The position numbers and the translations under genes are program-made. This document shows positions 2,366 to 17,785 of a stretch of DNA of 32,402 bases, piece by piece. The notes below the pieces were generated by a model. It made no database searches. It was not told where the DNA came from and saw only the letters and a program-made list of their open reading frames with translations. This DNA is from Candidatus Delongbacteria bacterium. GTDB lineage: Bacteria; UBA4055. The stretch lies in contig JAQVNT010000002.1 of the NCBI GenBank assembly GCA_028702975.1, forward strand, positions 1-32,402, given 5' to 3'. Numbering within the stretch: position 1 is the stretch's first letter; each line of letters starts with the position of its first letter.

Positions 2366-2629
2366 ATGTATAAATACAAAACAATAACCGCAAATGATCT
2401 GAAAACAAAAGGTATCTCAATGGTGGCTGAAGAGGTCGCTCAATACGGAGAGGCTGTCGTCACTGTCAGAGGAAAAGGTAAGTATGTGATCATTCCGATA
2501 GAAAAATATAACGAACTGCGTGAATATGAACTTTTGGCAGCTCTCGAAGAAACAAGAAAAGACATAGCAGAGGGCAAGTTTACTACAGAATCTGTCAAAG
2601 ATCATATTAAGAGTATCACGCATGATTAA
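2366..2629 (+). CDS. Type II antitoxin, Phd/YefM-like
   Basis: An 87-aa product from ATG 2366, with an RBS at 2354-2360. The track start at 2312 is a TTG extension. The pattern (...EAVVTVRGKGKYVIIPIEKYNEL...) is Phd/YefM-like. The gene overlaps the downstream toxin gene by 8 nt. Confidence 0.7.
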   Translation: MYKYKTITANDLKTKGISMVAEEVAQYGEAVVTVRGKGKYVIIPIEKYNELREYELLAALEETRKDIAEGKFTTESVKDHIKSITHD

Positions 2630-2894
2630 AATAATTTACTCTGATCATTTCAAGAAGAGGGTGAGGAAATTTGTCAAAAAACATCCTGATCTTGTTCAGC
2701 AGTACGAAAAAACGATCGAATTGCTTGAGTTAAATCCGCATCATCCTTCGCTCCGACTGCATAAACTGACGGGAAAGTTAAGCGATCTATATTCAGTATA
2801 TATAAACATAACTTACAGGCTGTCTATAGAATTTTTAATTCAGGACGAAAAGATAATACCGGTTGATATCGGTACGCATGAAGAAGTTTACTGA
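2622..2894 (+). CDS. Type II toxin, RelE/ParE superfamily (mRNA-interferase type)
   Basis: A 90-aa basic protein. The HKLTGKLSDLYSVYINITYRLSIEF and C-terminal GTHEEVY patterns are typical of RelE/YafQ-like toxins. It overlaps the antitoxin gene upstream. Confidence 0.7.
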   Translation: MIKIIYSDHFKKRVRKFVKKHPDLVQQYEKTIELLELNPHHPSLRLHKLTGKLSDLYSVYINITYRLSIEFLIQDEKIIPVDIGTHEEVY

Positions 2895-2912
2895 AGTGAA
2901 ATTGGAGGTATT

Positions 2913-3929
2913 ATGAGAAAATTAGCGAGTATTCAGAGGATAAAGGCATTGGAGCCGATCGAAGGGGCTGATGCAATAGAGAAAGCTACTGTTCTGGGCT
3001 GGCAGCTCGTTGTAAAGAAGGGTGAGTATAAAGTAGAGGATCTTGTCGTTTATTGCGAAATTGACTCTATCTTGCCCGAACGGCCTGAGTTTGAATTCTT
3101 AAAACCCCGCGGAATGAGGATAAGGACGATCAGACTTCGCGGTCAGGTTTCGCAGGGAATTTGCTTTCCGTTATCCGTTCTGCCGAAAGATTTTCCGATA
3201 GAAGAAGATGCCGATTGTACTGAAGTGCTTGGTATTGAAAAGTACGAGCCGCCGATCCCTGCCTGCTTAAGCGGAATTTCAAAAGGAAAATTCCCGTCGT
3301 TCATACCAAAAACTGATGAAACGAGGGTTCAGGTGCTTCAGGAAGTATTGGATAAATATAAAGGCGAAAAGTGCTATGTGACCGAAAAAATCGACGGCAG
3401 CTCTGTGACCTATTACATTAATAACGGCGAATTCGGTGTGTGCTCAAGAAATCTCGAACTTATCGAAGATGAAGAGAACAGCCTCTGGAAAGTGGCAAGA
3501 CAACTCGATATTGAGAACAAACTCCGCTCTCTCGGCAGGAATATCGCTCTGCAGGGTGAACTGATGGGTGAAGGCATACAGAGCAACAAGCTGAAATTAA
3601 GAGGTCAGACCGTTTTCTTTTTCAATGCCTTCGATATAGATAAATTCGTCTATCTGCCTTATGTTGAATTTAAAGAAATACTTGAAAATTTTCAGCTTCG
3701 GATGGTTCCTCTGATCACAACCGATTATGTGCTTGAGAATGATATCCCGTCGATCGTGAAAATGGCTACCGTAAAGAGTAAAATATGCCCGGATGTTTGG
3801 GCGGAAGGCATCGTGATCAGGCCGCTTGAAGATAAGATCGAACGGCTTATCGGAAACGATTATTTCAAGAACGACAGGGTCAGTTTCAAAGCAATCAATC
3901 CCGAATTCCTTCTGAAATACGGTGATTAG
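2913..3929 (+). CDS. ATP-dependent RNA ligase, DRB0094 (Rnl5/DraRnl-like) family
   Basis: The N-terminus MRKLASIQRI...IEGAD is typical of this family. The covalent nucleotidyltransferase motifs are present in order: EKIDGSS (motif I KxDG), LQGELMGEGIQ (III/IIIa), AEGIVIRP (IV) and VSFKAINPEF (V). GGAGG at 2904-2908 precedes the start. Confidence 0.8.
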   Translation: MRKLASIQRIKALEPIEGADAIEKATVLGWQLVVKKGEYKVEDLVVYCEIDSILPERPEFEFLKPRGMRIRTIRLRGQVSQGICFPLSVLPKDFPIEEDADCTEVLGIEKYEPPIPACLSGISKGKFPSFIPKTDETRVQVLQEVLDKYKGEKCYVTEKIDGSSVTYYINNGEFGVCSRNLELIEDEENSLWKVARQLDIENKLRSLGRNIALQGELMGEGIQSNKLKLRGQTVFFFNAFDIDKFVYLPYVEFKEILENFQLRMVPLITTDYVLENDIPSIVKMATVKSKICPDVWAEGIVIRPLEDKIERLIGNDYFKNDRVSFKAINPEFLLKYGD

Positions 3930-3969
3930 TATGAATAATATTTAAGGGAATGATACAGGAGAACCGTAT

Positions 3970-4356
3970 ATGAGAACAAATATCATACTATATGTCGCCG
4001 ATCAGAAAGCAAGCACATCTTTCTATAAAAAAGTTCTGATGATGCCGCCCGTACTCAATGTACCCGGAATGACCGAATTCAGACTCAACGAAGAAACCGT
4101 GCTCGGACTAATGCCGTCAGCAGGAATAAAACGACTTCTCGGAGATAAACTGCCCGATCCCGACAAAGCCGCAGGAATTCCGCGTGCAGAATTATATCTG
4201 TTGATCGATGATCCGGAAGCGTACCACAGACGCGCACTTGTGAACGAAGCGCAAGAGCTAATCCCGTTTCTCGCGAGGGACTGGGGAGATACTGTTGCGT
4301 ACAGCCTTGATCCCGACGGACATGTGATCGCGTTTGCGGGGAAGATAATTCAATAA
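3970..4356 (+). CDS. VOC / glyoxalase-bleomycin-resistance family protein
   Basis: A 128-aa ORF with a beta-alpha-beta-beta-beta type pattern (NIILYVADQKASTSFYKKVL..., ...AYSLDPDGHVIAF). An AGGAG-like RBS lies upstream. Confidence 0.55.
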   Translation: MRTNIILYVADQKASTSFYKKVLMMPPVLNVPGMTEFRLNEETVLGLMPSAGIKRLLGDKLPDPDKAAGIPRAELYLLIDDPEAYHRRALVNEAQELIPFLARDWGDTVAYSLDPDGHVIAFAGKIIQ

Positions 4357-4371
4357 GAATAAGGAGCAATA

Positions 4372-4869
4372 ATGGTTCTTGATATTATATATTCGACATT
4401 GGGCGCATTATTCCTGATCGCGGGGTTTGCAGGCTGTATACTTCCTATTATACCGGGTCCGCCGATAGCTCTGATAGGACTGATTATAGCCTATTTTTCA
4501 TCGTTCTCTATTATAACCGGCAATACCTTGATCTACAGCACGATCGCTGTTGTTGTTGTTACAGTTCTAGACCTCGTCGCGCCGCTGATATTCACTAAAA
4601 GGTTCGGAGGTACTAAGTACGGCTTGTACGGAGCAACAGCAGGACTTGTTGTAGGACTTTTCTTCGGGCCGTTCGGTGTTATTCTCGGTCCGCTGATCGG
4701 CGCATTTGCCGGAGAACTCTATAAGGATATGAGGGATAAAAGGAAGGCGTTCAGGTCAGCCTGGGCGAGTTTTGCGGGGTTCATGTTCGGGACTGGTTTA
4801 AAACTTATAACCGTAGGCGTGCTTATCTGGATATATGTCGCATCATTTTTTAATTCTGTAATCCCATGA
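4372..4869 (+). CDS. DUF456-like small membrane protein
   Basis: A 165-aa hydrophobic ORF with an LPIIPGPPIALIGL motif and glycine-rich helices. AAGGAG precedes the ATG. Confidence 0.55.
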   Translation: MVLDIIYSTLGALFLIAGFAGCILPIIPGPPIALIGLIIAYFSSFSIITGNTLIYSTIAVVVVTVLDLVAPLIFTKRFGGTKYGLYGATAGLVVGLFFGPFGVILGPLIGAFAGELYKDMRDKRKAFRSAWASFAGFMFGTGLKLITVGVLIWIYVASFFNSVIP

Positions 4870-5950
4870 TCTCATCGATCTTCTGTTTGACCCGTCCGCC
4901 CGATCCGCCGTCGAGCCCTGTAAAGAAATAATTTCTGTATTGTTCAAGCTTCGCTTTCATTTCCGGTGTCGGGTTGAGCGCTTGTTCTACGCAGGGGAGA
5001 AGATCATCGGGACTTTTCATGTGCGGGAAAGCTCCGAGCAGCCATTCTTTGGGATCTATTGAAAGTACGGGCATTCCGTCCGAGTGGTTGAGTTCGTTAT
5101 ACGGGAGTTCGTAGATTATTCCGTACCTGCCGAGCGCGAGGAATTCGTTTACTACGCTTGAAGTGTCGCTTATCATAGTGTCTGATGCGTACATGTAGGG
5201 ATAGATGTCGTAATCTTCCTTGCCGATCAGGAAGACACCGGGTTTTTCTTTCGCAAGCTTTTCGTAATATGTGTGCTGAGAGTGCGAGACATATTTTCCG
5301 CCCCAGCTGTACGGGTGAAGTTTGATTATCAGGTTGTACTTCGGTATGAGGTCAGCTATTCTATCCTTGATGTATTCGATGCAGCTAGGTTTGTATGAAG
5401 GTGCGTAAAGTACTGTCTTCTTATTCGGGTCAAGCCCTGTCTTTTTTATCAGCGCGTCCCTGTCGTAATGTCCCTCCCAGAAGAAAGGGTCGAGCTTCGG
5501 AATGCCTATGGTGTAAAAGTCGGCTTTGTCCTGCCAGTTTATGCTTTTTATGTAATCGTACCAGTACTGCCCTTCCAGGAAGACATGATAGCGAAAATCC
5601 TTCTGCTTTACGATGTTTCTGATCCTGAGTGTTTTGATGCCTACACCGTGGTCGAGGTGAACTCTGACGCAGTCTCCGTACTTCTAGGGATCTTTTAGAG
5701 CATCACCGCATACTACAAGATCAAATCCTTCTGTTTCGTCGGTAAGTTTATAACCTTCCTTTTTCATCCACTCGGCGATCCTGTTCTTTTCGTTGATAAG
5801 AAATACCCAGAGGAAGCGTTTCTGGTCTTTGCCGATGCGAAATGATATATCATAGCGGTCGTCTTTTGAAAGCTCTTTATAAAGCGGATATAGTGAGTTG
5901 AAATAATATTCCTTTTTAAGATCGAAAAGCACTTTGATTTTTGACATCAT
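4850..5950 (-). pseudogene. CDP-glycerol glycerophosphotransferase (TagB/TagF) family gene with one in-frame TAG
   Basis: My translation of the minus strand gives one continuous 366-codon frame joining track ORFs 5684..5950 and 4850..5194. It is broken only by TAG (plus-strand CTA at 5684-5686): ...CGDALKDP*KYGDCVRVHLDHG...KKTVLYAPSYKPS...IIKLHPYSW...MYASDTMISDTSSVVNEF.... The YAPS, KLHP and SDTSSV patterns match the Glyphos_transf family. Confidence 0.7.
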
Positions 5951-6036
5951 TTATATCCTGTCAGAATTTTTTTGTAATTTAACTCATGGTTGCCAAAATA
6001 TCCAATATTTTATGATTTGTTTTTTATAGCTTCAGT

Positions 6037-6077
6037 TTTTCTTTAGATTCTGTTTATACATTCTGATAACTTTTTAT
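6037..6077 (+). repeat. 41-bp exact repeat, copy 1 (promoter/operator-like block)
   Basis: TTTTCTTTAGATTCTGTTTATACATTCTGATAACTTTTTAT is identical to 11014-11054. It ends 11 nt before ATG 6089. Confidence 0.9.
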
Positions 6078-6088
6078 GAGGTTCAGTT

Positions 6089-6249
6089 ATGAAAAATATT
6101 CAAAACGGTTTACTCAGCCATTGGAGAATGATGGGCTAGACATAAATGTCAGAATTGTAAATGCTGTCTTTTTTACCATAATAGCAAGTATGGTTATTTA
6201 TTTGACTTATAGTAAAGTAAATGTAATAAGAGAGGAAATAGCTGACTAA
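6089..6249 (+). pseudogene. Internally deleted remnant of a COG4705-like membrane protein gene (paralog of 9421..10197)
   Basis: Bases 6089-6117 are 29/29 identical to 9421-9449 (MKNIQNGLL). Bases 6118-6249, in another frame, encode PLENDGLDINVRIVNAVFFTIIASMVIYL..., which resembles the C-terminus of 9421..10197 (PLENGGIDINIGIVNAVFFTAIVSMVIYL...). The ATG frame stops after 16 codons. Confidence 0.75.
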
Positions 6250-6275
6250 ATAATCAATAAAATTTAAGGAATTCA

Positions 6276-8660
6276 ATGAAAAAAATGATTACAGAAAATA
6301 TATTAAAAGCATTATTTGTAATTTTACTACTGGTGTTTAATATTGCATATTCTCAAACTTTCAAAATTACAGGAAAAATAGTTGAATCAACCGGTGAAGA
6401 ACCACTGCCAGAGGCTAATGTGATTCTACATAAAAAATCGGGCTCTGTTCTTAAGGGGGCAGTTACTGATAGCTTAGGTGTTTTTAAAATTAAATTGATT
6501 CCAAGTGGAAATTATTTCATTGAAATTAAATATATGGGTTTTATTCCTGATACAATTTCGCACTTAGATATTTCAGCAAACATTAATCTAGGAGATATTT
6601 TCTTAAAACCATCTGAAATACTTCTTGATGAGATTGTTGTAAAAGGTAAAGCAGATATTTATACATCTCACTTGGATAAAAAAGTTTATAATGTTAGTAA
6701 AGATATTCTTTCAGAATCAAGTTCCACGAGTGAAATATTGCAAAATATTCCTTCAGTTAATGTTGATATCAACGGTGGGATTACATTGAGAAATACGAGT
6801 AATATTACATTTTTTGTAAACGGAAAACCATCGGCCCTATTAAGAAATAATCCTTCTGCGGTATCAGATCTAATACCTGCAAGTAGTATAGAGAAAATTG
6901 AAATTATAACTAACCCCTCAGCCAAATATAAACCTGACGGAGTTGGAGGAATAATAAATATTGTTCTAAAGAAAAATATGTCAGAAGGATTGAATGGACA
7001 AATTAGTGCTAATGTTGGTAATGATGAAAGATATAATGCTAATATTAATTTAAATTACGGAACTAAAAAGTTAAAACTTTACGGGAATTATGGTTTAAGG
7101 CATTCAAAACCAATTACATTATTTACCGATGCAATGGTTTACAAAGATAGTTTAGGTATTGCAAACAGCTTTTTTAGTGAAGACGGTAAATCAAAAATCG
7201 ATATATTTGGTCATAATATCATTGCAGGTGCAAATTACAAATTTGACGATTATAATAATATCGAAATATCGGGAACTTATGATTTGCAAAATTCATTTCA
7301 TGATGGGAACTCTGATATAATATCGCTTGATTCACTGCAAAATCCAAATTATAATATTACGAATGTTCAAACAGATGATGAGCTTGAGGAAGAGGGAGAA
7401 GTAAGCCTAACATATGAACATGTTTTTAATAAAAATGAAGATCATACTTTAACATTTGAGGCTATATATTCGGCATATAATGAAAAAGAGGACAAGATAT
7501 ATAATCAAAACCAGATATTTCCTATTACGAATACAGACATCAGTAGATATATAATTGAGAAAAATGGTAATCAACAAGAATTGAATTTAGAATATACTTT
7601 ACCCATTAATGAGAATTCTGAAATTGAAAGTGGTTATTCAGGTGAATTTATCTTTGATAATATATGGTATAATAAAAATTCAGTTTTAAGTAAGTTTCTA
7701 TTTAACCGACAAGTACATGCTTTTTACGGGTTATTCGGACAGTCGGTTGAAATTTTTAGTTACAAAGCAGGTTTAAGAGCAGAAGAAACCAATACTAAAT
7801 CACATTTAATAACTCCAATAGATACATTAATTACCAATAATTATTTCAAATTATTTCCAACAATACACCTTGGTTATGATATTACTGATGATAATAAATT
7901 ATCTATGAGTTATTCAAAAAGAGTTAACAGACCCGATCCGGATGAATTAAATCCAAATCCAGAATATAATGACTTACGAAATGCAGAAATGGGAAACCCT
8001 AACTTAAAACCTGAACAAATTCATTCTATAGAATTTGGATACGAACATATACAAAAGAAATTTTCGATAAATACTACTCTCTACTATAGGTATAAATATG
8101 ATGCATTTACCGGAATATCAACGAATATTGGCGATACTTTAGTAATGTTTACAACGACTAATCTTACTACTCAAAAATCAGGAGGTTTTGAAGCAGTTAT
8201 TTCAGGTGATTATTTTAAAGATTGTTCATACAGTTTAACCGGTGATATATATTTTAGCACAATTGATGCTTCTAATCTTGGCTATTCTGACAATAAATCA
8301 AGCATTTCAGGTAATATTAAAGGCTATACCCTAATTAAGCTAACTAAAAGTACTTCATTTCAGATAAATGGTTATTACTATTTCCCAAAAATAACACCTC
8401 AGGGTCAGATGGAAGATTTTTATTATTTTAATCTTGGATTAAAACAGAATTTATTTAATAATAAAGCATCAATTACTCTGACAGGAACCGATGTATTTCA
8501 TACCTATAAAGTTAACTATTCTATAAATTCAGATGAATTAAATCAAAAATCAAATATGCAAAGAATGAATCCTGTTATTTCTCTAGGATTTATTTGGAGG
8601 TTTAACAATTACCAAGAAGAAGACAAAATTATTTTTGATGGTAACGGCATTAAGAAATAG
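6276..8660 (+). CDS. TonB-dependent receptor / outer-membrane beta-barrel family protein with CarboxypepD_reg-like N-domain
   Basis: A 794-aa ORF. It has a signal peptide, then FKITGKIVESTGEPLPEANVIL...GNYFIEIKYMGF (carboxypeptidase-regulatory-like fold). A plug-like segment follows (ILQNIPSVNVDINGGITLRNTSNITFFVNGKPS), then a long Y/N/G-rich beta-strand region. Confidence 0.75.
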   Translation: MKKMITENILKALFVILLLVFNIAYSQTFKITGKIVESTGEEPLPEANVILHKKSGSVLKGAVTDSLGVFKIKLIPSGNYFIEIKYMGFIPDTISHLDISANINLGDIFLKPSEILLDEIVVKGKADIYTSHLDKKVYNVSKDILSESSSTSEILQNIPSVNVDINGGITLRNTSNITFFVNGKPSALLRNNPSAVSDLIPASSIEKIEIITNPSAKYKPDGVGGIINIVLKKNMSEGLNGQISANVGNDERYNANINLNYGTKKLKLYGNYGLRHSKPITLFTDAMVYKDSLGIANSFFSEDGKSKIDIFGHNIIAGANYKFDDYNNIEISGTYDLQNSFHDGNSDIISLDSLQNPNYNITNVQTDDELEEEGEVSLTYEHVFNKNEDHTLTFEAIYSAYNEKEDKIYNQNQIFPITNTDISRYIIEKNGNQQELNLEYTLPINENSEIESGYSGEFIFDNIWYNKNSVLSKFLFNRQVHAFYGLFGQSVEIFSYKAGLRAEETNTKSHLITPIDTLITNNYFKLFPTIHLGYDITDDNKLSMSYSKRVNRPDPDELNPNPEYNDLRNAEMGNPNLKPEQIHSIEFGYEHIQKKFSINTTLYYRYKYDAFTGISTNIGDTLVMFTTTNLTTQKSGGFEAVISGDYFKDCSYSLTGDIYFSTIDASNLGYSDNKSSISGNIKGYTLIKLTKSTSFQINGYYYFPKITPQGQMEDFYYFNLGLKQNLFNNKASITLTGTDVFHTYKVNYSINSDELNQKSNMQRMNPVISLGFIWRFNNYQEEDKIIFDGNGIKK

Positions 8661-8717
8661 GTAAGAGTTGAGTACTATGACTGTTTTAATTCTGATAACT
8701 TATGATGAGGTTTAATT

Positions 8718-9176
8718 ATGAAAAATGTTAAAACATATTTACCACTTGTAACATCAGTTTCTGAAGTTAAAAAAGAAAATGTTACAGAATCGATCACTTT
8801 TAAAAAAACGTTACAAATACTTTTAGTAGATGATGAAGAAATTGTATGTAATATTGGAAAAGAGATGCTTGAAATAAGCATTCATTCAGTGTCTGTTTGT
8901 AAAGATGGTATTGAGGCGATAGAAATATACAAAAAGAACTGGAAGGATATTCAACTTGTAATTCTCGATATGGTTATGCCTAAGTTGGCAGGAACGGAAA
9001 CATATTATGTCTTAAAAGATATAAATCCAAACGTTAAGGTTTTGCTTACATCCGGCTACAGCATTACCGGAGAGGCACAGAACTTACTTGATATTGGAGC
9101 ACAGGGATTCATCCAGAAACCGTTTATAATTGCAGAATTGGCGAAAAGTGTTGCTGAAATATTTCCTTATGAATAA
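8718..9176 (+). CDS. Stand-alone response-regulator receiver (CheY-like) protein
   Basis: The receiver residues are present: LLVDDEE acidic pocket, LVILDMVMP phospho-acceptor Asp, LTSGY and FIQKPF. There is no output domain. A 32-aa N-terminal linker-like extension precedes the domain. Confidence 0.75.
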   Translation: MKNVKTYLPLVTSVSEVKKENVTESITFKKTLQILLVDDEEIVCNIGKEMLEISIHSVSVCKDGIEAIEIYKKNWKDIQLVILDMVMPKLAGTETYYVLKDINPNVKVLLTSGYSITGEAQNLLDIGAQGFIQKPFIIAELAKSVAEIFPYE

Positions 9177-9218
9177 TTGTGTAAAACAAGCCAATAAAAA
9201 ATTAACGAGGAGAATGAA

Positions 9219-9380
9219 ATGATTAAACTATTGCCACAAAGTACAGGTTTTGTTTAAGGTTTCAAAATTACAAGTAAAGTATCCTCAGAGGAGGAAAAGG
9301 AGTGGTTCGCCAAAATAGAACAAAATATTGAGCCATGGTCAATAATGTACTGCTTTAGAATGTCTTTAGAATGTCTTTAG
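9219..9380 (+). pseudogene. Possible degraded fragment of a SpoIIAA-like/STAS (DUF3478-type) gene
   Basis: One frame reads MIKLLPQSTGFV*GFKITSKVSSEEEKEWFAKIEQNIEPWS..., with an in-frame TAA at 9255-9257 and an early end. The N-terminal pattern resembles that family from memory only. Confidence 0.25.
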
Positions 9381-9385
9381 AATGA
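9353..9385 (+). repeat. Three tandem 11-bp units CTTTAGAATGT (last unit ends in A)
   Basis: The units are 9353-9363, 9364-9374 and 9375-9385. Each contains TAGAAT. The array ends 35 nt before ATG 9421. It is a candidate regulator-binding array. Confidence 0.9.
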
Positions 9386-9420
9386 GTTAGTATAATTGAG
9401 CAAATTAATGGAGGTTAGCT

Positions 9421-10197
9421 ATGAAAAATATTCAAAACGGTTTACTCAGAGTTCCAGAAATAACTTTAATATTCTGGATAATTAAGGTGTTATCTACAAC
9501 AGTGGGTGAAACCGGAGCAGACTTTTTAGCAGAGGATCTGGGTTTAGGAATGCCTTTAGTAGCCGGAATAATGAGTTTCATAATGGCTGTTCTGCTGATA
9601 TTTCAATTTACGAAATTCAAGAAGTATATACCCTGGAATTATTGGTCGATAGTGATCTTAATGAGTATAATAGGTACTTTAATTACTGATATTCTTGTCG
9701 ATGATATAGGCATAAGTTTGCTTACTCTGAGTATTGTTTTTACAATATCAATGATCGCGGTATTTATCGTTTGGTTTAAAGAAGAAAAGACATTATCAAT
9801 TCATTCTATTAATACTGGTGTAAGAGAAATATATTATTGGATCATTATCTTAATGGCATTCGCACTGGGAACAGGTGTCGGTGATCTGATATCTGAATAT
9901 TTCGAGCTTGGTTATGGTATAGCTTTATTATTATTCGGTGGTGCGATCGCATTGATAGCTTTTAGTGTTTTTGTTTTAAAGTTGGACAGAACATTAGGTT
10001 TCTGGCTTGCATTTATTTTAACTAGACCGCTTGGAGCATCATTAGGAGATTTCTTTACTCAGCCGTTGGAAAATGGAGGTATAGACATAAATATCGGAAT
10101 CGTGAATGCTGTTTTTTTTACAGCAATAGTAAGCATGGTTATTTATTTAAGTGCTAAAGAGAAAATTAAGGAGAAAGAACATGGAACAAATTTTTGA
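9421..10197 (+). CDS. Polytopic membrane protein, COG4705-like
   Basis: A 258-aa hydrophobic ORF. GGAGG at 9410-9414 precedes the start. The N-terminal PEITLIFWIIKVLSTTVGETGADFL is echoed later by TRPLGASLGDFF, a pattern I associate with COG4705 membrane proteins. Confidence 0.55.
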   Translation: MKNIQNGLLRVPEITLIFWIIKVLSTTVGETGADFLAEDLGLGMPLVAGIMSFIMAVLLIFQFTKFKKYIPWNYWSIVILMSIIGTLITDILVDDIGISLLTLSIVFTISMIAVFIVWFKEEKTLSIHSINTGVREIYYWIIILMAFALGTGVGDLISEYFELGYGIALLLFGGAIALIAFSVFVLKLDRTLGFWLAFILTRPLGASLGDFFTQPLENGGIDINIGIVNAVFFTAIVSMVIYLSAKEKIKEKEHGTNF

Positions 10198-10981
10198 TCG
10201 AAATGGTGGAACTGTAGGATGGTTAACGGTATTCACGGTTCTTGTATGTTGCACTTTTTCAGCCTTTGGACAAGTACTCGAAACGGAATCCGCATACCTT
10301 CCGGATAAACATTCATTTGGTACAATGGCAAGTTTCGAGTATCAGTTTTCTGCTGATGGAAAGGGAATGGCAGTACCACTTGAATTGTCTTATAGTATTC
10401 TTGACAATTTGGAAATTCTTGTTCAACCAACAATCTTTGCTGCAGTCTTTCCATCGAACGGAGAGAGGGTGAATGGACTTGGAGACATCGAGGCCTCGCT
10501 GACCTGCAATTTCAATCATGAAAAAATTTATCTGCCAGCGTTCAGCTTTGCCGGAGAAGTGAAATTGCCGACTGCCCGAAACATATTGATCGGGACGGGA
10601 AAAACCGACTGGACACTTTACGGCATTGCTACGAAAAATTTTGGGCCCGTAGAAATTGACGGCAATGTCACATACACCTTTATGGGTAGTCCGGAAGGCG
10701 TTCATCTGGACAATACCGTTGGTGGCTCATTGGCGGCGGAATGGGAGGTTACTCCGGTACTCAGGCTACTCGGGGAGGCTTTTGCCAATAGTGCTGCGCT
10801 ACCAGAATCTGCTTCAACCGATGCAGAATCCAAGATTACACCGGAAGCTGGCTCGGCAGAGTTTTTCGGTACAGTTGGAGCTGCATACCAATTAAACTCG
10901 AAACTTGAAGTGTCCGTCGGAATTAACTATGGCAGCAGTAACTCAATATTGCTCATTGCAGGCGTTGCAATGGACTGGTAA
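10181..10981 (+). CDS. Outer-membrane beta-barrel protein (MetA-pathway-of-phenol-degradation-like transporter family, tentative)
   Basis: I prefer ATG 10181, which follows AAGGAG at 10168-10173; the track start at 10151 is a GTG. It has a signal-like segment (WLTVFTVLVCCTFSAFGQ), alternating beta-strand patterning, a GLGD motif and a C-terminal aromatic residue (...GVAMDW). It overlaps the upstream gene by 17 nt. Confidence 0.55.
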   Translation: MEQIFDRNGGTVGWLTVFTVLVCCTFSAFGQVLETESAYLPDKHSFGTMASFEYQFSADGKGMAVPLELSYSILDNLEILVQPTIFAAVFPSNGERVNGLGDIEASLTCNFNHEKIYLPAFSFAGEVKLPTARNILIGTGKTDWTLYGIATKNFGPVEIDGNVTYTFMGSPEGVHLDNTVGGSLAAEWEVTPVLRLLGEAFANSAALPESASTDAESKITPEAGSAEFFGTVGAAYQLNSKLEVSVGINYGSSNSILLIAGVAMDW

Positions 10982-11013
10982 TGAGTTTATGCTTGTTACT
11001 GGAATATAACCGA

Positions 11014-11054
11014 TTTTCTTTAGATTCTGTTTATACATTCTGATAACTTTTTAT
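11014..11054 (+). repeat. 41-bp exact repeat, copy 2 (promoter/operator-like block upstream of PAP2-RR-HK)
   Basis: Identical to 6037-6077. It contains TCTTTAGATTC and ends 13 nt before ATG 11068. Confidence 0.9.
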
Positions 11055-11067
11055 AGTGAGAGAAGAA

Positions 11068-11808
11068 ATGAGTATAAATCCATTAAATTTCATATATCCG
11101 ATTTTTGCAGTGACATTAATAATTATAATAAAGCGAGGCTATTATAATGGAATTTTGAAAAATATCATTTTTGATTTGCGATATAATTATAAATTAGTTA
11201 TTGTTTTATTTACAGTTCTTTTAGGAATAATTTTATTTATTGATGAACCGGTAGCCACATATTTAAGAAACCTTAAATTACACAAAATATTAATATTAGA
11301 AATAACTTCAAAATTAGGCAACACATTTGGGAACGGTAATTTTTTATACTCGTATTTCATAGTTGTAATTGTAATTGGTGTACTTTTAAAAAAAAACATC
11401 AAAATATTAATGATTGCTTTAGCTTCTTCGGCATTTGCAGGAATATTTGTTATGTTATTAAAATTTTTAATAACCAGAGAAAGACCGGCTGTTTCATTTG
11501 ACAGTTTACATTTTTTTGCGTATCAGGCAGCAATTAGTAAAAATGAATTATTGAAATTTAACTATACAAGCATGCCTTCAGGACACACAATAACAATTGT
11601 AGCTGCAGTAGTACCGCTGATATTGTTTTATAAAAATAAAATGGTAAGGGCACTTCTGGTTTTTCTGTCTTTTACAACAATGTTTAACAGAATATACAGC
11701 TCAGCTCACTGGATGAGCGATGTCTATACTTCAATTGCTATAGGCATTCTTGTAGGAATCAATATTTATTCGTTAAATATTGAGAAAGATAGGAAAAATT
11801 CGATATGA
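11068..11808 (+). CDS. PAP2-family (type 2 phosphatidic acid phosphatase superfamily) membrane phosphatase
   Basis: All three PAP2 motifs are present: KFLITRERP (KxxxxxxRP), PSGH, and NRIYSSAHWMSDV (SRxxxxxHxxxD-like). It has multiple TM segments. I prefer the ATG at 11068 over the GTG at 11056. Confidence 0.8.
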   Translation: MSINPLNFIYPIFAVTLIIIIKRGYYNGILKNIIFDLRYNYKLVIVLFTVLLGIILFIDEPVATYLRNLKLHKILILEITSKLGNTFGNGNFLYSYFIVVIVIGVLLKKNIKILMIALASSAFAGIFVMLLKFLITRERPAVSFDSLHFFAYQAAISKNELLKFNYTSMPSGHTITIVAAVVPLILFYKNKMVRALLVFLSFTTMFNRIYSSAHWMSDVYTSIAIGILVGINIYSLNIEKDRKNSI

Positions 11809-11854
11809 ATAGTTTTTCTTTTAAAAGGGGTAAATTTATGTTAAATTACTTGCT

Positions 11855-12532
11855 ATGAAAATTCTGATAATTGAAGATGAAATTGAGTTGTTGATCGCAG
11901 AAAGTAATTACCTTACTAAGGAAGGTTATGTCTGTGAAATGGCTGAAAATTTCCAAAAAGCGGGTGAAAAAATCTCAATCTATGAATATGATATAATTCT
12001 GCTGGATATTACTTTACCGGACGGGAACGGGCTTGAATTATTTAAAACCGTAAAAAAATACAATGTAAAAGCAGGCGTTATAATTATTTCGGCTAAGAAT
12101 TCACTGGATGATAAAATTATCGGGCTTGATCTCGGAGCCGACGACTATATGACAAAACCTTTTCAATTATCGGAATTGAATTCAAGGATCAAAGCTGTTT
12201 TAAGAAGAAGGCAATTTGACGGATCAAATATTATTACCTTTAATGAAATAAGTTTGAACACAGATAGTAAGGCTATAAACATAAACGGAAATGATATTTC
12301 ATTTACTAAAAAAGAATATGATCTGCTTCTTTATTTTATAGTCAATAAAAATCGTGTTCTTACAAAGGAAGCCATAGCAGAGCATTTATGGGAAGATAAT
12401 ATTGATCTGGCTGATAATTTCGATTTTATTTATACTCATCTCAACAACATCCGAAAAAAAATTAAATCGGCAGGCGGTAAAGACTATATTAAAACAATTT
12501 ATGGTATGGGCTATAAATTGGGGGAATTATGA
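11855..12532 (+). CDS. OmpR/PhoB-family response regulator (receiver + winged-helix)
   Basis: It has the receiver residues (IIEDE, ILLDITLPDG, ISAK, MTKPF) and a C-terminal winged-helix pattern (FTKKEYDLLLYFIVNKNRVLTKEAIAEHLW...IRKKI...IKTIYGMGYKL). An ATGA overlap joins it to the kinase gene. Confidence 0.9.
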   Translation: MKILIIEDEIELLIAESNYLTKEGYVCEMAENFQKAGEKISIYEYDIILLDITLPDGNGLELFKTVKKYNVKAGVIIISAKNSLDDKIIGLDLGADDYMTKPFQLSELNSRIKAVLRRRQFDGSNIITFNEISLNTDSKAININGNDISFTKKEYDLLLYFIVNKNRVLTKEAIAEHLWEDNIDLADNFDFIYTHLNNIRKKIKSAGGKDYIKTIYGMGYKLGEL

Positions 12533-13761
12533 AATTTTTATCGAAAATTAACAGGAATTATTTTTTTCTCCTTTTAATCATTATGATCATAGTTTCTGTA
12601 GCAGGATATTTTATTCTGCAATTTATCATTCTTGATGACGCCAGAGAAAATCTTACTCAAAATGAAGCCCTAATAATTAATCAGATCATTAAAACCGGTG
12701 AAATTCCGAATATTCATCCGATAGTTGAAATTACACGGATCAATAATAAAACAGTCAAAGAATCATCCTTCAAAGAGATCAATATGCCTTATGAAGGAGA
12801 AGAAGAGACTTTTTTAGAATATTCAAATCAGGTAAAGATAAAGGATTCTTTTTATCAGATTACTTTAAGAGAAACTACTTTTGAAAAGGACAATCTGGTT
12901 ATATTATTAGCTATGAGTTTCATAGTTTTATTGACAGCGTCATTCGGTATTTCGTTTTTTGTAAGTAAGAAAATGAATAAAACTATATGGGTTGATTTTG
13001 AAAGCAATTTAGAAGAAATCGAGAATTTTAGTTTAAGCGGAGAGAGTAGCCTGTCGTTTATACAAACTGATATCGAAGAATTCGACCGTTTAAACACAGT
13101 AATAAATAAGCTTACTAAAAAATTAAAAAGCGATTTTGTTTCTCTGAAAGAATTCACAGAAAGCGCTTCCCACGAAATCCAGACACCTCTTGCTGTAGTC
13201 CTTCTTAATCTTGAGGAAGTTTTACAGCAGGATTTAAATAAAGATACTTTTGAAAAGGTGATCGCATCTATAAATGCTATAAAAAGATTATCTAATCTGA
13301 ATAAAAGCCTAATTTTAATGACAAAAATTGAGAATAATCAATTCAAGGCTGACAATTTAGTTTCAATTAGCGATTTGTTCAAACACAAAATTGATGAATA
13401 TTCTACTCTTTTTGAATCAAAAAAACTTAATACCGAGATAAATATTGATCAAGATTTTGGACTGAGAATCAATGAGCAGATTGCAGATATTTTAATTAAC
13501 AATTTATTATCAAATGCGATTAAACATAATTTTGAAGGCGGTAAAATTCAGATATATATAAATAAAAACGAATTTAGGATCTGCAACACAGGAGAAGATC
13601 ATTTTCTTACAAATGATAACATTTTTAATCGTTTCGTAAAAGGAAACCCCGGATCTTATGGTTTAGGCTTGTCAATAGTCAAGAAAATTTGCGAGTCTCA
13701 AAACTTAAATATTCAATATGAAAAAAAAGAACTGCATTGCTTTATAATTAAATCAAATTAG
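12529..13761 (+). CDS. Sensor histidine kinase (two TM segments, HisKA + HATPase_c)
   Basis: It has an H-box (SASHEIQTPLAVV), an N-box (LLSNAIKHN) and a G-box (GLGLSIVKKI). TM segments lie near residues 10-32 and 120-145, flanking a roughly 90-aa extracytoplasmic loop. Confidence 0.85.
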   Translation: MKFLSKINRNYFFLLLIIMIIVSVAGYFILQFIILDDARENLTQNEALIINQIIKTGEIPNIHPIVEITRINNKTVKESSFKEINMPYEGEEETFLEYSNQVKIKDSFYQITLRETTFEKDNLVILLAMSFIVLLTASFGISFFVSKKMNKTIWVDFESNLEEIENFSLSGESSLSFIQTDIEEFDRLNTVINKLTKKLKSDFVSLKEFTESASHEIQTPLAVVLLNLEEVLQQDLNKDTFEKVIASINAIKRLSNLNKSLILMTKIENNQFKADNLVSISDLFKHKIDEYSTLFESKKLNTEINIDQDFGLRINEQIADILINNLLSNAIKHNFEGGKIQIYINKNEFRICNTGEDHFLTNDNIFNRFVKGNPGSYGLGLSIVKKICESQNLNIQYEKKELHCFIIKSN

Positions 13762-13770
13762 TTTTTTTTA

Positions 13771-13810
13771 CTTCAGAATATCTTTAGATTCAGTTGATAT
13801 ATTTGGATAG
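13771..13810 (+). promoter_or_regulatory. Conserved promoter/operator block upstream of PepSY-like gene 1
   Basis: The block reads CTTCAGAATATCTTTAGATTCAGTTGATATATTTGGATAG. CAGAAT (13774-79) and TAGATT (13785-90) are 11 bp apart. TATATTTG (13798-13805) matches the Bacteroidota-type -7 element TAnnTTTG. The block aligns with 14518-14557 and 6030-6069. Confidence 0.5.
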
Positions 13811-13832
13811 TAAAATTAAAAAAGGAGAAACA

Positions 13833-14333
13833 ATGAAACATCTATTAGTACTGACAACCGTTCTCGCACTGCTTTGTTTCAGTGCTTACGGAGAGACAAA
13901 GAAAGAAGTGCCTGCGGTTGTAAAGGAAGCTTTCGCGAAAAAATTCCCAACTGCAAAAGATGTAAAATGGGACAAAGAAAATGATAAGGAATGGGGAGTT
14001 GAATTTGAGCTTGCCGGAAAAGAATTATCAGCGAACTTTGACAATGCCGGACTGTGGACTGAAACAGGCTATGAATTAGAATCAAAAGAAGTTCCTGCAG
14101 TAGTGAACGCTGCAATTACAAAAGATTTCGCAGGTTACAAGATCGAGGATGTAGCTATGTCTGAATCTAAAGACAGTAAAGTTTACGAGTTTGTACTTGA
14201 AAAAGGCAAAGATAAGCTAGAAGTTGATGTTTCACCTGATGGTAGGATCCTGAAGAAAGGGAAAAAGACCGACGAAGACGGTGAAAACGATGATGGTGAA
14301 GACGGAGAGGATGGCGAAGAAAACGATGATTAA
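13833..14333 (+). CDS. Secreted PepSY-like (DUF2874-type) protein with strongly acidic C-terminal tail
   Basis: ATG 13833 follows AAGGAG. It has a signal peptide (MKHLLVLTTVLALLCFSAYG) and two repeats of the VP..V..A....F......W pattern typical of PepSY-like beta-lactamase-inhibitor-like domains. The tail is GKKTDEDGENDDGEDGEDGEENDD. Confidence 0.75.
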   Translation: MKHLLVLTTVLALLCFSAYGETKKEVPAVVKEAFAKKFPTAKDVKWDKENDKEWGVEFELAGKELSANFDNAGLWTETGYELESKEVPAVVNAAITKDFAGYKIEDVAMSESKDSKVYEFVLEKGKDKLEVDVSPDGRILKKGKKTDEDGENDDGEDGEDGEENDD

Positions 14334-14361
14334 ATAAAACAGCCTTGATATTATTAAAAAA

Positions 14362-14390
14362 AGTCCTGAAAATTTTCGGGACTTTTTTTT
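14362..14390 (+). terminator. Rho-independent terminator
   Basis: Stem AGTCCTG (14362-68) pairs with CGGGACT (14377-83), including one G-U pair. The loop is 8 nt and a T8 run follows. Confidence 0.65.
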
Positions 14391-14517
14391 ATATTATTAT
14401 ATATCACTAAATCTGCAATACCGGAGCAAATAACTCTCTTAAGTAAAGAAAATTTATGAGGTACAAAAATTAGATATCCATGTTTTATCATAAGATCTGA
14501 TTTGTAATTAATTTAAA

Positions 14518-14557
14518 CTTCAGAATTTCTTTAGATTTGCTGAATATATCTTATCAA
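14518..14557 (+). promoter_or_regulatory. Conserved promoter/operator block upstream of PepSY-like gene 2
   Basis: The block reads CTTCAGAATTTCTTTAGATTTGCTGAATATATCTTATCAA. CAGAAT (14521-26) and TAGATT (14532-37) are 11 bp apart. It is a paralog of 13771-13810. Confidence 0.5.
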
Positions 14558-14582
14558 ATTTATCTTAAAAAAGGAGAAAAAA

Positions 14583-15086
14583 ATGAAACACCTGTTAGTA
14601 ATGACGACCGTTTTAGCATTTCTTTGTTTTAGTGCGTACGGTCAAACAAGCAAAGAAGTGCCTCCGATTGTTAAGGCAGCTTTTGCAAAAAAATTTCCCG
14701 GTGCAACTGATGCAAAATGGAATAATGAAGACAATAAAGATTGGGGAGCAGAATTTAAGTTGAACGGGAAAGATCTGTCCGCAAATTTCGATAATAAGGG
14801 AATGTGGGCCAAAACAAAGTATCAAATAGATTCCAAAGAAATACCTGAGGCTGTGAACAATACCATTAAAAAGGATTTCTCAGGCTACAAAATTGAAAAA
14901 TCTGAGATGACGGAATCTAAAGACACAAAAGTTTATGATTTTGTTCTTGAAAAAGCTAAAGAAAAAATCGAAGTTGTTATTGCTCACGATGGTAAAGTTG
15001 TAAAAAAAGAAGCAAAATCAGAGTCAAAAGCTATAAAAGTCGAGCCAAAAGCTGTAAAAACAGAGCCAAAAGCAGGAGGGAAATAA
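14583..15086 (+). CDS. Secreted PepSY-like (DUF2874-type) protein with lysine-rich C-terminal tail
   Basis: A paralog of 13833..14333. By eye the core is about two-thirds identical and the signal peptide is nearly the same. The tail EAKSESKAIKVEPKAVKTEPKAGGK contains a K-A-[IV]-K-x-E-P-K-A repeat. Confidence 0.75.
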   Translation: MKHLLVMTTVLAFLCFSAYGQTSKEVPPIVKAAFAKKFPGATDAKWNNEDNKDWGAEFKLNGKDLSANFDNKGMWAKTKYQIDSKEIPEAVNNTIKKDFSGYKIEKSEMTESKDTKVYDFVLEKAKEKIEVVIAHDGKVVKKEAKSESKAIKVEPKAVKTEPKAGGK

Positions 15087-15116
15087 ATAAAACAAGTCTT
15101 GATTAGATTTTTATAA

Positions 15117-15146
15117 AGTCTCGGAATCTTCCGGGACTTTATTTTA
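15117..15146. terminator. Rho-independent terminator, possibly bidirectional between convergent genes
   Basis: Stem AGTCTCGG (15117-24) pairs with CCGGGACT (15131-38), including one G-U pair, followed by TTTATTTT. It sits between the stop at 15086 (+) and the stop at 15164 (-). Confidence 0.6.
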
Positions 15147-15163
15147 CATATCATTGTCTAATA

Positions 15164-16743
15164 TCACTGAAAAAAATCTACCTTTGTTGTGTCACTTGCA
15201 AAAGTAAATTTCAAGTATCCAGCAAGCCAATCCAGATCAGAACCGTTAATAAATATAGTATTTTTATCAGGATCCTTTGCTTTGTAACCAAGTAATGCAA
15301 CTATGTAATTGCTTAATTCGTAGTGGCTTCTGATACTATCAAAAATTCCCTTATCATTTGGAAAAAGATTGAATTCTAAAAAAGGAACCGTATAAACCAG
15401 CGGATCAAAAAAGCCGTGACCCTGCTTTCCTTTCCGTTCAATAATTCTCCGTGGTCTGAAGTAAACACCATAAATGTAGGTTTATCCGATTTTTTTTTAA
15501 GATAATCGTATATTCCTTTTAGTACGGAATCAGTATATAGTACTGTATTATCGTAAGGCTCATTAAATCTTCCGAATTCTTCAGAGTAACTTCTGTAAGG
15601 AGAATGTGAACCTTTCTGATGGAGTACGATAAAATTATTATCATTTAAATTAATTTTTGAAAGCATCGAGACCAAATCTTCGTCGAGAGATGTATAAGAA
15701 TCAAGGGAAGTTTGAATATCTTCTTTATTATAATAAAAGTCTATGAACTTTTTTCCCAGAATATTGTCAATAACAGATAATTCTTTTTCGGTTTGATTAG
15801 AGATGAACCATGTTATAAAGCCGTTGTTCTTTGCCAGTTTAAAAAGATTATTATCCATATTCAAATCGTTACACGGCTGCTTAATACGGTTTAACAATGT
15901 ATTAAAACTTGTTTTAGTCATAGTTCCGCCGGAATAAATATTTTTTGATAGAACTGATCGTGTAGAACTAAGTGAATCGATAAATGGTGTTGTATTTACT
16001 TCATAACCGTTAATTGAAAGTTTGTCCCATCTTAATGATTCTCCCACTACAAAAATTATATTTCTATCAGGGAGCTTTTCAACTAAGACAGGCTTTTCAG
16101 ATAATATGGTTTCAGGCAAATCATTTCGTGTAATCTTCTTATATAATATTCCACCTATAAAATAGTTCAGACTTCTAACAGAATTGTCGTAAGAATGCTG
16201 ATACTTTGAAGGATAAATAGCCTTCGCTTGCCAGTGGAGGAGGCTTTTTCCGCTGTTAATATATGAAAATGTCACAAAGAAGTTGATTAATATGGCTACT
16301 GTTATCAGTATATAAGAATGTTTAAAACCGATAAGTCTGTCACCGATCTTTTTATTAAAAAAGAAAACTGAAATTATTGAGACTATGAAAAGAAGTATCG
16401 GGAAGATCATTACATCTATCTCGGGGAAAAAAGATTCCATAACTTCGGGTACACTTTCGAAAAAAAGAAGAAAAGCTATCGGCGGCAACAGATTACCAAA
16501 ATACTGAAAATACAGATGTTGGATTAATATAGATACTAAGACAATTAAAGTGAGGATGAATCTTAATCTGAAATTTCTTATAAAGCTTAGAAGCAAAGCT
16601 GTTACAACCGGAAAGAAAAAAGTACCTTTTCCGACAACAATTTCAAACGAATTATTATACATTGAAAACAGCAGGTCCTCTGACACAAAAATTGCTGTAT
16701 AAATTAAAATGAATAATATATTATTTATTACTAACCGATACAT
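15164..16743 (-). pseudogene. Phosphoethanolamine-transferase-like membrane enzyme (sulfatase/alkaline-phosphatase superfamily, EptA/LptA-like) with a 1-nt frameshift
   Basis: Track ORF 15376..16743 has an N-terminal polytopic domain plus VVGESLRWDKLSINGY, SGGTMTKTS and FTSDHGELLNGKES. It then runs into RVTAFLIRWFIRFLF*. Shifting one base at the CCC run (15420-15422, GGG on the coding strand) gives ...SRGHGFFDPLVYTVPFLEFNLFPNDKG...TTKVDFFQ*, ending at 15164. That is the expected family continuation (DHGE...GHG...VPF). Confidence 0.7.
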
Positions 16744-17785
16744 TGAATTCCAAGAGCTTATCTATTATTTTATTTGCCATTCTTTTACCCGCAGTTCCAT
16801 CTAGTGCAAAAAACATGGTTTCATTAGCATTTTTTCGTTCCGACGATTTTTCATCAGGATTATCCAAACATTTTTCGATCGCCCCTTCAATTTCAGAAAA
16901 ATTATCTATCTGAATTGATATCGAACTTAACATAATAATTATTTCAGGTATCGTCCTCAAGCTCTCAGGAACTTTAAATGTGATAAGCGGTTTATCAAAC
17001 GCACAGAATTCTCCGATCAATGAATTATAATCACCGACCATAACATCTGCAATCATTAAATAATCTGTTATATCATGATCTTCAATGAAATATGTTTTAG
17101 GAATATTTCTTAGTTTTTCTACTTTAGATTTCTCTGTCCATGTATGAACCGTAAGGAGTATATTATATTTATCAGTTAACAAATGAACATTGTCTATCCA
17201 TTTATCTAGTTGAGATAACCCGTCAATATTCCATGTTGATGTAAAAAGAACAGTTTTTTTATTTCTGTCTATTTTGCTCTTATCCCTAAGTTTTTCAAGT
17301 AGTTCTGGAGTAATTGTACCGTCAAAAGCTTTATCAAGCTTAGGATATCCAATTGCATAAGTTGTTTTTATTCCCAATTTCTCTGCGTTTTCGACCTGTT
17401 TATTACTGGAAACAAAATAAATATTAAAATTATTATATGTCTTTGGATTTGTCCATTTTTTAAATTGATAAAGACCATGATCGAATCCAAACTTAACAAT
17501 TTTATTTACAGGAAATTTATATGGCGTATGCCGAGCCATGATAACAGCTTTAGGAAATACAGGCATACAAATGTAATCAATGCCAATTTCTTTTAAATAT
17601 TTTTTCGTTTTTCTATTTTTTGCGACAATTTTTATCTCTGGTAGATATTTCTTCACTGGCATGAACATTTCATAATCTAACGGATCAGCACAATAAAAAA
17701 CAATTGGCTCAAGCTTATTAAAGAGTTTTACGATATACCATACTGCTATGTAAGGATATTTATAAATTAAATTAGAAAAATTCAT
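16721..17785 (-). CDS. CDP-glycerol glycerophosphotransferase (TagB/TagF) family protein
   Basis: It has KKTVLFTSTWN, LTVHTW and IADVMVGDYNSLIGEFCAFDKPLITF patterns, analogous to the YAPTWR / KxHP / DYSS motifs. It shares an operon with tagD. Confidence 0.65.
   Translation of the reverse strand: MNFSNLIYKYPYIAVWYIVKLFNKLEPIVFYCADPLDYEMFMPVKKYLPEIKIVAKNRKTKKYLKEIGIDYICMPVFPKAVIMARHTPYKFPVNKIVKFGFDHGLYQFKKWTNPKTYNNFNIYFVSSNKQVENAEKLGIKTTYAIGYPKLDKAFDGTITPELLEKLRDKSKIDRNKKTVLFTSTWNIDGLSQLDKWIDNVHLLTDKYNILLTVHTWTEKSKVEKLRNIPKTYFIEDHDITDYLMIADVMVGDYNSLIGEFCAFDKPLITFKVPESLRTIPEIIIMLSSISIQIDNFSEIEGAIEKCLDNPDEKSSERKNANETMFFALDGTAGKRMANKIIDKLLEFNVSVSNK

Follow-up and report, generated by a model that had tools for sequence, protein, structure and literature searches.

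A conserved 11-bp-phased repeat as the putative operator of an OmpR/PhoB-type envelope regulon in a Candidatus Delongbacteria contig and in Bacteroidales

Two-component systems whose response regulator binds direct-repeat operators and controls its own gene are textbook knowledge. In the system PmrA/PmrB (BasR/BasS) of Enterobacteria, the pmra-box consists of two hexamers with a gap of 5 nt, overlapping the -35 element, and PmrA bound there contacts region 4 of the sigma factor and activates transcription (PMC10570014). In the Bacteroidota species Porphyromonas gingivalis, the system HaeS/HaeR (PG0719/PG0720) adjoins a lipoprotein with four DUF2874 (PepSY_like) domains (PMC3764172), and HaeR binds its own promoter and the promoters of TonB-receptor and efflux genes (PMC3764172, PMC5706477). 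Here we analyzed a stretch of 32,402 nt from a Candidatus Delongbacteria bacterium (assembly GCA_028702975.1, contig JAQVNT010000002.1, positions 1 to 32,402, in the following called the window), which carries a cluster of nine intact genes, all located on the + strand within 6276-15086. One of them encodes an OmpR/PhoB-type response regulator (11855-12532). Repeats of the type CTT(T/C)AGA(A/T)T in the intergenic regions of this cluster are very probably binding sites of the phosphorylated form of this regulator. The same assignment had been proposed in an original prediction made from the window alone, and it is now supported by three independent lines of evidence, namely conservation at related loci, specificity for particular genes, and covariation with the regulator itself.

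The repeat had been described as a hexamer, (C/T)AGA(A/T)T, with an 11-bp phase. The bare pair YAGAWT-N5-YAGAWT with one mismatch was only weakly enriched in the window (12 matches compared to 6.8 expected), showing that the signal resides in a longer unit, and we dropped the hexamer pair for this reason. According to the profile of external sites presented below, the conserved unit is CTT(T/C)AGA(A/T)T(T), which has a length of 9-10 bp and is repeated head to tail with an 11-bp period. When CTTCAGNNTNTCTTTAGATT was searched with up to three mismatches, five matches were obtained at positions 6030, 9353, 9364, 13771, and 14518, all of them on the + strand and intergenic within the cluster. In 100 dinucleotide shuffles of the window 0.32 matches were expected, and none of the shuffles reached five.

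Scored with a matrix derived from external sites (see below), operator A (6030..6050, + strand), composed of a degenerate distal unit CTTCAGTTT and the proximal unit CTTTAGATT, reached 22.9 bits. Operator B (9353..9383, + strand) has three tandem 11-bp units, CTTTAGAATGT twice and then CTTTAGAAT, forming two overlapping full sites with 25.1 bits at 9353 and 25.1 bits at 9364; the three tandem CTTTAGAATGT units previously reported at 9353-9385 are present as claimed. Operator D (13771..13791, + strand) has the sequence CTTCAGAAT-AT-CTTTAGATT and 24.7 bits, and operator E (14518..14538, + strand), CTTCAGAAT-TT-CTTTAGATT, is the top site of the window with 29.4 bits. The remaining place, half-site C (11018..11026, + strand), is a single CTTTAGATT in a duplicated promoter fragment that has lost the distal unit. 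Read as a 21-mer (11007-11027) it scores 11.6 bits, which is background, as matches in coding regions of the window reach 11-13 bits. The five start-proximal repeat sites originally proposed thus comprise four full sites (22.9-29.4 bits) and one half-site, whose TAGATT is located at 11021-11026 rather than at 11020-11025.

Exactly 7 nt separate the proximal hexamer from a downstream -10-like sequence TAnAnT on the + strand at each of the five places, as read from the sequence. The -10-like sequences are TACATT (6057..6062) for operator A, TATAAT (9391..9396) for operator B, TACATT (starting at 11034) for half-site C, and TATATC (14545..14550) for operator E. For operator D, the element is TATATTTG (13798..13805), which contains TATATT and at the same time represents a perfect TAnnTTTG box of the Bacteroidota type. 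A recognisable -35 hexamer was absent from all five promoters of the window; scanning with a sigma-70 pattern yielded 44 candidates, none of them at the expected place, compared to 47.3 in shuffled sequence, and was uninformative in this respect. If TAnAnT is set at -12 to -7, the two repeat units span approximately -39 to -20, which is the geometry of the pmra-box.

From the pmra-box geometry and the absence of a -35-like hexamer we infer class II activation. A dimer of the regulator would occupy two successive units from about -39 to -20, replacing the -35 element, and the bound dimer would recruit RNA polymerase, as do PmrA and PhoB. The three units at 9353-9383 could accommodate two overlapping dimers. 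Since the sites overlap the core promoter, the same regulator might instead act as a repressor, with the dimer covering the -35 region and blocking RNA polymerase until a signal arrives. In this context, HaeR of P. gingivalis, which is possibly related and located beside a DUF2874 (PepSY-like) gene, was reported to be both activator and repressor (PMC3764172). We nevertheless consider repression unlikely, because the five promoters offer no recognisable -35 hexamer for activator-independent transcription, the sigma-70 scan having given 44 candidates versus 47.3, and because the geometry resembles those of the pmra-box and the pho box, both of which are activating (PMC10570014).

Homologues of the sensor kinase encoded next to the regulator were numerous, with 50-68% identity, and came mostly from metagenome-assembled genomes of Bacteroidales. 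Using an alignment of 17 kinase homologues, we retrieved 80 loci from species-representative genomes with flanks of up to 10 kb, corresponding to 1.2 Mb; two of them, L018 and L039, stem from the complete genomes OY760498.1 and OY775914.1, respectively. The pattern [CT]AGA[AT]T-N5-[CT]AGA[AT]T had 45 matches in these loci, the great majority of them directly upstream of the regulator gene adjacent to the kinase gene. In the profile of these 45 external sites every hexamer was preceded by CTT, although the seed pattern had left these positions free, and the sites were followed by TAnnTTTG, with TA located 7 nt and TTTG 11 nt after the proximal hexamer. The resulting consensus is CTT(T/C)AGA(A/T)TTnCTT(T/C)AGA(A/T)T-N7-TAnnTTTG. 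A scoring matrix of 21 nt was built from the 45 external sites alone, with no window sites included, and detected 106 sites with ≥16 bits in the 1.2 Mb of loci compared to 2 in shuffled sequence. The motif is therefore conserved at orthologous loci, whose loss of the hexamers would have spoken against its being an operator.

For each site with ≥15 bits in the 80 loci we recorded the first downstream gene. It encoded an orthologue of the regulator (52-81% identical to the window regulator) for 47 sites, a PepSY-like protein for 31 sites, a TonB receptor of the OMP_b-brl_3 type for 5 sites, and another protein, mostly with a signal peptide, for 28 sites. In the reverse approach, we counted the genes of the kinase-anchored loci having a site within 200 nt upstream. 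Such a site was present for 40 of 71 regulator genes, for 27 of 45 PepSY-like genes, which are the commonest targets apart from the regulator, and for 5 of 15 TonB receptor genes. All other genes had one in 15 of 553 cases (2.7%), and none was found before the operon-internal genes for the kinase, the RND pump, and the fusion protein. A motif that precedes 40/71 regulator and 27/45 PepSY-like genes, but only 15/553 others, is not a generic promoter element, and the corresponding objection to the original prediction falls away.

In the Bacteroidales loci the ATG of the regulator gene lies 18-19 nt after the 21-mer and only a few nt beyond TAnnTTTG (loci L001, L003, L005, L006, L013-L023, and others; about 9288-9330). 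This arrangement suggests that the regulator mRNA is nearly leaderless in Bacteroidales. In the sites before PepSY-like genes, the distal unit was usually weakened to CTTCAAAAT or CTTTAAAAT, A replacing G (L005, L009, L013, L015, L016, L018-L021, L023, and others), whereas the regulator sites had two full units. The sites of the PepSY-like genes in the window retain the G in the distal unit. A weak versus a full distal unit may set differing thresholds for the PepSY-like and the regulator promoters.

The motif was also searched independently of the kinase, by scanning metagenome contigs for the exact 20-mer CTTTAGAWTNNCTTTAGAWT. Among the 122 matches listed, 14 stand 19 nt before a regulator orthologue, and a box of the TAnnTTTG type occurs at canonical spacing in 35, compared to about 1.7 expected from a random rate of 1.4%. 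Seven of the matches (L081, L094, L102, L152, L159, L183, L192) represent a single locus from gut metagenomes, in which the 20-mer directly follows an intrinsic terminator beside an era-like GTPase gene and has neither a promoter box nor a related gene; these matches were judged to be unrelated or due to chance.

The third line of evidence comes from the regulator itself. The protein encoded by 11855-12532 consists of a receiver domain (PF00072, 85.9 bits) and a winged-helix Trans_reg_C domain (PF00486, 66.9 bits) and thus belongs to the OmpR/PhoB family. The operators have the geometry characteristic of this family, with 11-bp direct repeats close to the -35 region both in the window and at the 45 external sites. 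The nearest solved structures are DrrD and PmrA/BasR (E = 2.5e-37 for PmrA/BasR), the latter including complexes of PmrA with DNA and with RNA polymerase. The recognition helix has the sequence YTHLNNIRKK. In an alignment with PmrA of K. pneumoniae, THLNNIR of the window regulator is placed opposite VHIHNLR, so that the first Asn of THLNN, Asn193, takes the position of PmrA His195, and the second Asn that of Asn196. In PmrA, T187, N188, V192, and H195 contact the TAA bases of both half-sites (PMC10570014), and N188, N196, and R210 were assigned to base-specific recognition (PMC4660055).

Among the regulators that follow a site, base 4 in the proximal unit covaries with the residue equivalent to His195. 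Where this residue is Asn, base 4 is T (CTTTAGA) in 33 of 34 loci, including the window; where it is Lys, base 4 is C (CTTCAGA) in all 10 loci. A rough neighbor-joining tree placed the Lys type at no fewer than four distinct positions among the Asn types, which makes it unlikely that the correlation goes back to a single inherited accident. We regard this covariation as the strongest available stand-in for a binding experiment.

The original prediction had considered an alternative in which the conserved block serves, with a -35-like function, as the core promoter for a dedicated alternative sigma factor whose gene is located elsewhere. The fixed distance from the block to the start-proximal box at all sites would fit this idea, and an ECF (extracytoplasmic function) sigma gene is located downstream of a site in L025 and L026. 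The downstream element of the Bacteroidota loci, however, is the housekeeping TAnnTTTG box, and a tandem repeat with the 11-bp period of a helical turn and up to three units is unlike a -35 element. Moreover, the repeat and a residue in the recognition helix of the neighboring regulator covary, and the motif co-occurs with the regulator gene (40/71 loci) rather than with a sigma gene. Most loci have no ECF sigma gene, and in those that do, the gene follows a site as a target. The alternative thus found no support, and we consider a dedicated sigma factor very improbable as an explanation of the block.

A further possibility concerns the history of the locus. The identity of 41 bp between 6037-6077 and 11014-11054, noted in the original prediction, is exact. 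In addition, a partial copy of the leader with the first codons (MKN...), but without repeat units, is present at 8681..8733 (+ strand); it is 85% identical to 6050-6104, lacks 2 nt in the -10-like box, and precedes the gene of a lone receiver protein, whose N-terminus seems to be derived from the start of a DUF347 protein. These two identities show that a promoter-leader cassette was copied within the locus. An Rfam search of 5600-15400 with a permissive threshold gave no match, indicating that the shared leaders do not correspond to any known RNA element. The ATG at 6089, previously taken as a gene start, begins an internally deleted and frame-shifted copy of a DUF347 gene and translates to MKNIQNGLLSHWRMMG*. 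This remnant (6078..6250, + strand) is 95% identical to 9411-9449 in its segment 6078-6117 and 83% identical to 10054-10148 in its segment 6109-6203; about 600 bp were lost, out of frame, between TTTACTCAG microhomologies. Operator A once served this second DUF347 gene and now faces the TonB receptor gene.

In view of these copies, the shared sequence might be a mere footprint of recent duplication or recombination of a promoter-leader cassette, devoid of regulatory meaning; the 41-bp identity, the third leader copy at 8681-8733, and the deleted DUF347 duplicate at 6078-6250 would speak for this reading. Owing to the cassette copying, the sites A and C depend on each other, in contrast to B, D, and E, which are independent; the latter share the repeat units and their spacing, but not the flanks, and the units recur before orthologous genes in dozens of distantly related genomes. 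Duplication as the sole explanation is contradicted by these observations, and a locus history without regulatory meaning is hardly credible.

The cluster in which the putative operators are embedded was annotated with Pfam unless stated otherwise, and all of its features are located on the + strand. The first intact gene 3' of operator A encodes a TonB-dependent receptor with CarboxypepD_reg, Plug, and OMP_b-brl_3 domains (6276-8660) and is followed by the gene for the stand-alone receiver protein (8718-9176), which has a Response_reg domain only and no output domain. Downstream of operator B are genes for a DUF347 membrane protein with four repeats (9421-10197; PF03988, 158 bits), a putative outer-membrane beta-barrel protein (10181-10981; weak match to Phenol_MetA_deg with E 4.8e-4, under the curated cut-off), and a PAP2-family phosphatase (11068-11808; Pfam and NCBIfam), the last one being weakly similar to LpxE and to undecaprenyl-diphosphate phosphatase. 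The PAP2 gene stands between the promoter copy with half-site C and the gene of the regulator, the proposed repeat binder (11855-12532). The sensor histidine kinase gene (12529-13761; HisKA and HATPase_c) overlaps the stop codon of the regulator gene by ATGA at 12529-12532. The kinase has 410 aa and a His at position 215; its matches to solved structures were limited to generic kinase cores (HprS, QseC). The cluster ends with the genes for two PepSY-like periplasmic proteins (13833-14333 and 14583-15086; both PF11396), for which comparison of a PepSY-like protein with solved structures returned matches limited to uncharacterised structural-genomics entries. The sole clear intrinsic terminator of the cluster, a 15-pair stem followed by a T run, is located after the first PepSY-like gene (14356-14389); in the terminator scan, none was detected between 9421 and 13761.

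From this layout, four transcription units can be proposed. The first would comprise the TonB receptor gene, probably together with the lone receiver gene, and would be read through the dead DUF347 remnant. The second would include the DUF347 and outer-membrane barrel genes and, probably by read-through, also the PAP2, regulator, and kinase genes. The third and the fourth would consist of the first and the second PepSY-like gene alone, respectively. Of the five regulated units originally envisaged, four can be assigned a full site, the first of which opens with a pseudogene, and the PAP2-regulator-kinase unit has only the half-site, which may give weak binding. Judging from the sites before the regulator gene in 40/71 loci, autoregulation appears to be near-universal in this family. 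In the window it had been ascribed to the site of the PAP2 unit; given the half-site and the absence of a detectable terminator between 9421 and 13761, positive autoregulation would probably depend instead on transcripts that start at the triple repeat at 9353 and read through.

Some observations weigh against the assignment of the repeats to this regulator or reduce its weight. The regulator gene of the window is not directly preceded by a full site, in contrast to 40/71 of its orthologues, and site A has a degenerate distal unit (CTTCAGTTT). The likeness of A, C, and the leader at 8681 is partly due to recent duplication and hence does not count as independent evidence. The neighbor-joining tree is rough and not robust, and the covariation could go back to a few evolutionary events. 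Finally, the preference for activation over repression is derived from geometry alone. What the sequences show directly is that the motif is conserved, specific, fixed in geometry, and covariant with the regulator; activation, operon structure, and physical binding are all inferred from this.

The loci of the relatives give an impression of the regulon to which the operators belong. In Bacteroidales the typical order is a site, the regulator and kinase genes, and genes for a TolC-like outer-membrane factor, an HlyD-type fusion lipoprotein, and an AcrB-type RND pump, often followed by a PagL-like lipid A 3-O-deacylase gene, a second site, a PepSY-like gene, and sometimes directly thereafter a PAP2 gene. 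A PAP2 gene after a site-preceded PepSY-like gene was found in L003 and L016, TonB receptors of the OMP_b-brl_3 type follow sites in L002, L009, L042, L049, and L072, and a DUF347 gene is part of a site-preceded gene pair in L037. Further site-preceded genes in relatives encode an ECF sigma factor along with an outer-membrane protein, PMT_2 (ArnT-like) and GT87 membrane glycosyltransferase proteins, a phosphate-type porin, and YncE-like beta-propellers. The theme suggested by this gene content is remodelling of the outer membrane and of lipid A plus efflux. The window cluster with its PAP2, TonB receptor, DUF347, outer-membrane barrel, and two PepSY-like genes fits this theme. The combination of components, originally regarded as lacking an assigned function, thus has a recognisable theme once relatives are examined.

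The system described here resembles PmrA/PmrB in having an OmpR/PhoB-type regulator, with PmrA/BasR among the nearest solved structures, an operator of paired hexamers with a 5-nt gap (11-bp period) overlapping the -35 region (PMC10570014), and autoregulation. The regulons of the relatives share enzymes for lipid A and the envelope (PagL-like, PAP2, and ArnT-like PMT_2) and efflux genes with that of PmrA, and the window cluster is located beside a lipopolysaccharide (LPS) core cluster containing two sulfatase-family genes and an MsbA-like gene. However, the regulator scores 173 bits with the PmrA model NCBIfam NF007928, below the cut-off of 330. The operator agrees with the pmra-box in spacing and position, but its half-site is CTTTAG or CTTCAG and not XTTAAY (PMC10570014). 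The sensor domain of the window kinase is unrelated by name to that of PmrB, the downstream promoter element in Bacteroidota is TAnnTTTG, and the signature targets found here, PepSY-like proteins and TonB receptors of the OMP_b-brl_3 type, are not among the targets of PmrA. By analogy, the system would work like PmrAB or PhoPQ without being their orthologue.

With PhoB and the pho box, the system shares 11-bp direct repeats that replace the -35 element and may comprise several tandem units, as at 9353-9383. The repeat sequence differs, the regulon found here lacks phosphate-uptake genes, and the regulator reaches 154 bits on the PhoB model, under the cut-off of 296. The closest studied relative may be HaeS/HaeR, a Bacteroidota two-component system that is likewise of the OmpR type. 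HaeS has a similar kinase layout, with 427 aa, His226, and a periplasmic domain of about 104 aa, compared to 410 aa and His215 in the window kinase (PMC3764172, PMC5706477). HaeSR has been described as a regulator of hemin acquisition and not of lipid A or efflux, and the likeness is taken from its published descriptions. In the HaeSR literature searched, no binding motif of HaeR was found.

The window kinase passes the PorY model NCBIfam NF052314 by a small margin, aligning to model positions 1-417 of 418 with 361.8 bits (cut-off 350). PorY itself is an orphan kinase, and its partner PorX does not belong to the OmpR-type DNA binders (PMC5706477), whereas the window kinase gene overlaps that of an OmpR-type regulator. 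The site-preceded genes encode envelope and efflux functions, with no type IX secretion genes among them. The label PorXY does not describe the window kinase. Automatic annotation would probably name the kinase after PorY, hinting at control of type IX secretion.

The cluster is convergent with the LPS core/lipid A cluster, which is located on the - strand (15376-29997). The LPS cluster encodes a family-9 heptosyltransferase, enzymes of the families GT1, GT2, and GT4, an MsbA-like ABC transporter, and two sulfatase-family membrane proteins, possibly phosphoethanolamine transferases. Scanning the window with the matrix revealed no operator site before this LPS cluster. The MsbA-like protein (28096-29997) is 76-81% identical to proteins of Candidatus Delongbacteria, with no Bacteroidota among the named matches listed, and the host accordingly looks like a member of Candidatus Delongbacteria. 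The regulator, in contrast, is 70-81% identical to proteins of Bacteroidales, and this difference between the relatives of the two proteins suggests horizontal transfer. The G+C content is 31.7% in the two-component cluster, where the outer-membrane barrel gene (10181-10981) is an exception with 45.7%, 32.9% in the LPS cluster, and 43-45% in the flanks (1-5683, 30121-32402). Window genes have Shine-Dalgarno sequences and leaders of 35-45 nt. It is plausible that the cluster was acquired from Bacteroidota and then adapted to the expression signals of the host. Elsewhere in the window, a toxin-antitoxin pair of the Phd/YefM-YafQ type (2312-2894, both proteins under the Pfam cut-offs) is followed by a gene for an RNA ligase with a PHA02142-type OB domain (2913-3929).

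Taken together, the motif could delineate the regulon of an uncharacterised, Bacteroidota-wide counterpart of PmrAB/PhoPQ, with RND, PagL-like, PAP2, ArnT-like, and foremost PepSY-like outputs, possibly belonging to the HaeSR family, whose module was transplanted into Candidatus Delongbacteria. We offer this combined reading tentatively, as one that may prove correct but on which we would not yet rely. If it applies, the PepSY-like proteins might feed back on the kinase, by analogy to CpxP acting on CpxA, the system and the hemin-responsive HaeSR of P. gingivalis may be members of one family, and the transplanted module would have been refitted with Shine-Dalgarno leaders and TATAAT-type boxes. 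A search of the literature, in a searchable library that is incomplete, revealed no description of this motif or regulon, and a coevolution paper on F. johnsoniae turned out to have no bearing on it. In a low-iron study of Bacteroides thetaiotaomicron, the PepSY-like BT0922-0923 were mildly induced in low iron and in colitis, and no regulator was assigned to them.

What is new here is the delineated regulon and its binding motif, not the mechanism. Within the literature searched, this is the first regulatory context found for PepSY-like (DUF2874) proteins. A sharp 20-bp operator with fixed promoter geometry makes the regulon legible from genome sequence, including that of gut and environmental Bacteroidales. 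The motif is a concrete candidate for the binding site of HaeR in P. gingivalis, and the covariation of Asn/Lys with T/C lends itself to a specificity swap. The family is widespread in Bacteroidota, where the system is very common and yet unstudied. Its genes suggest that it controls efflux and the structure of lipid A in the outer membrane, which bears on resistance to antimicrobial peptides and on immune recognition by the host.

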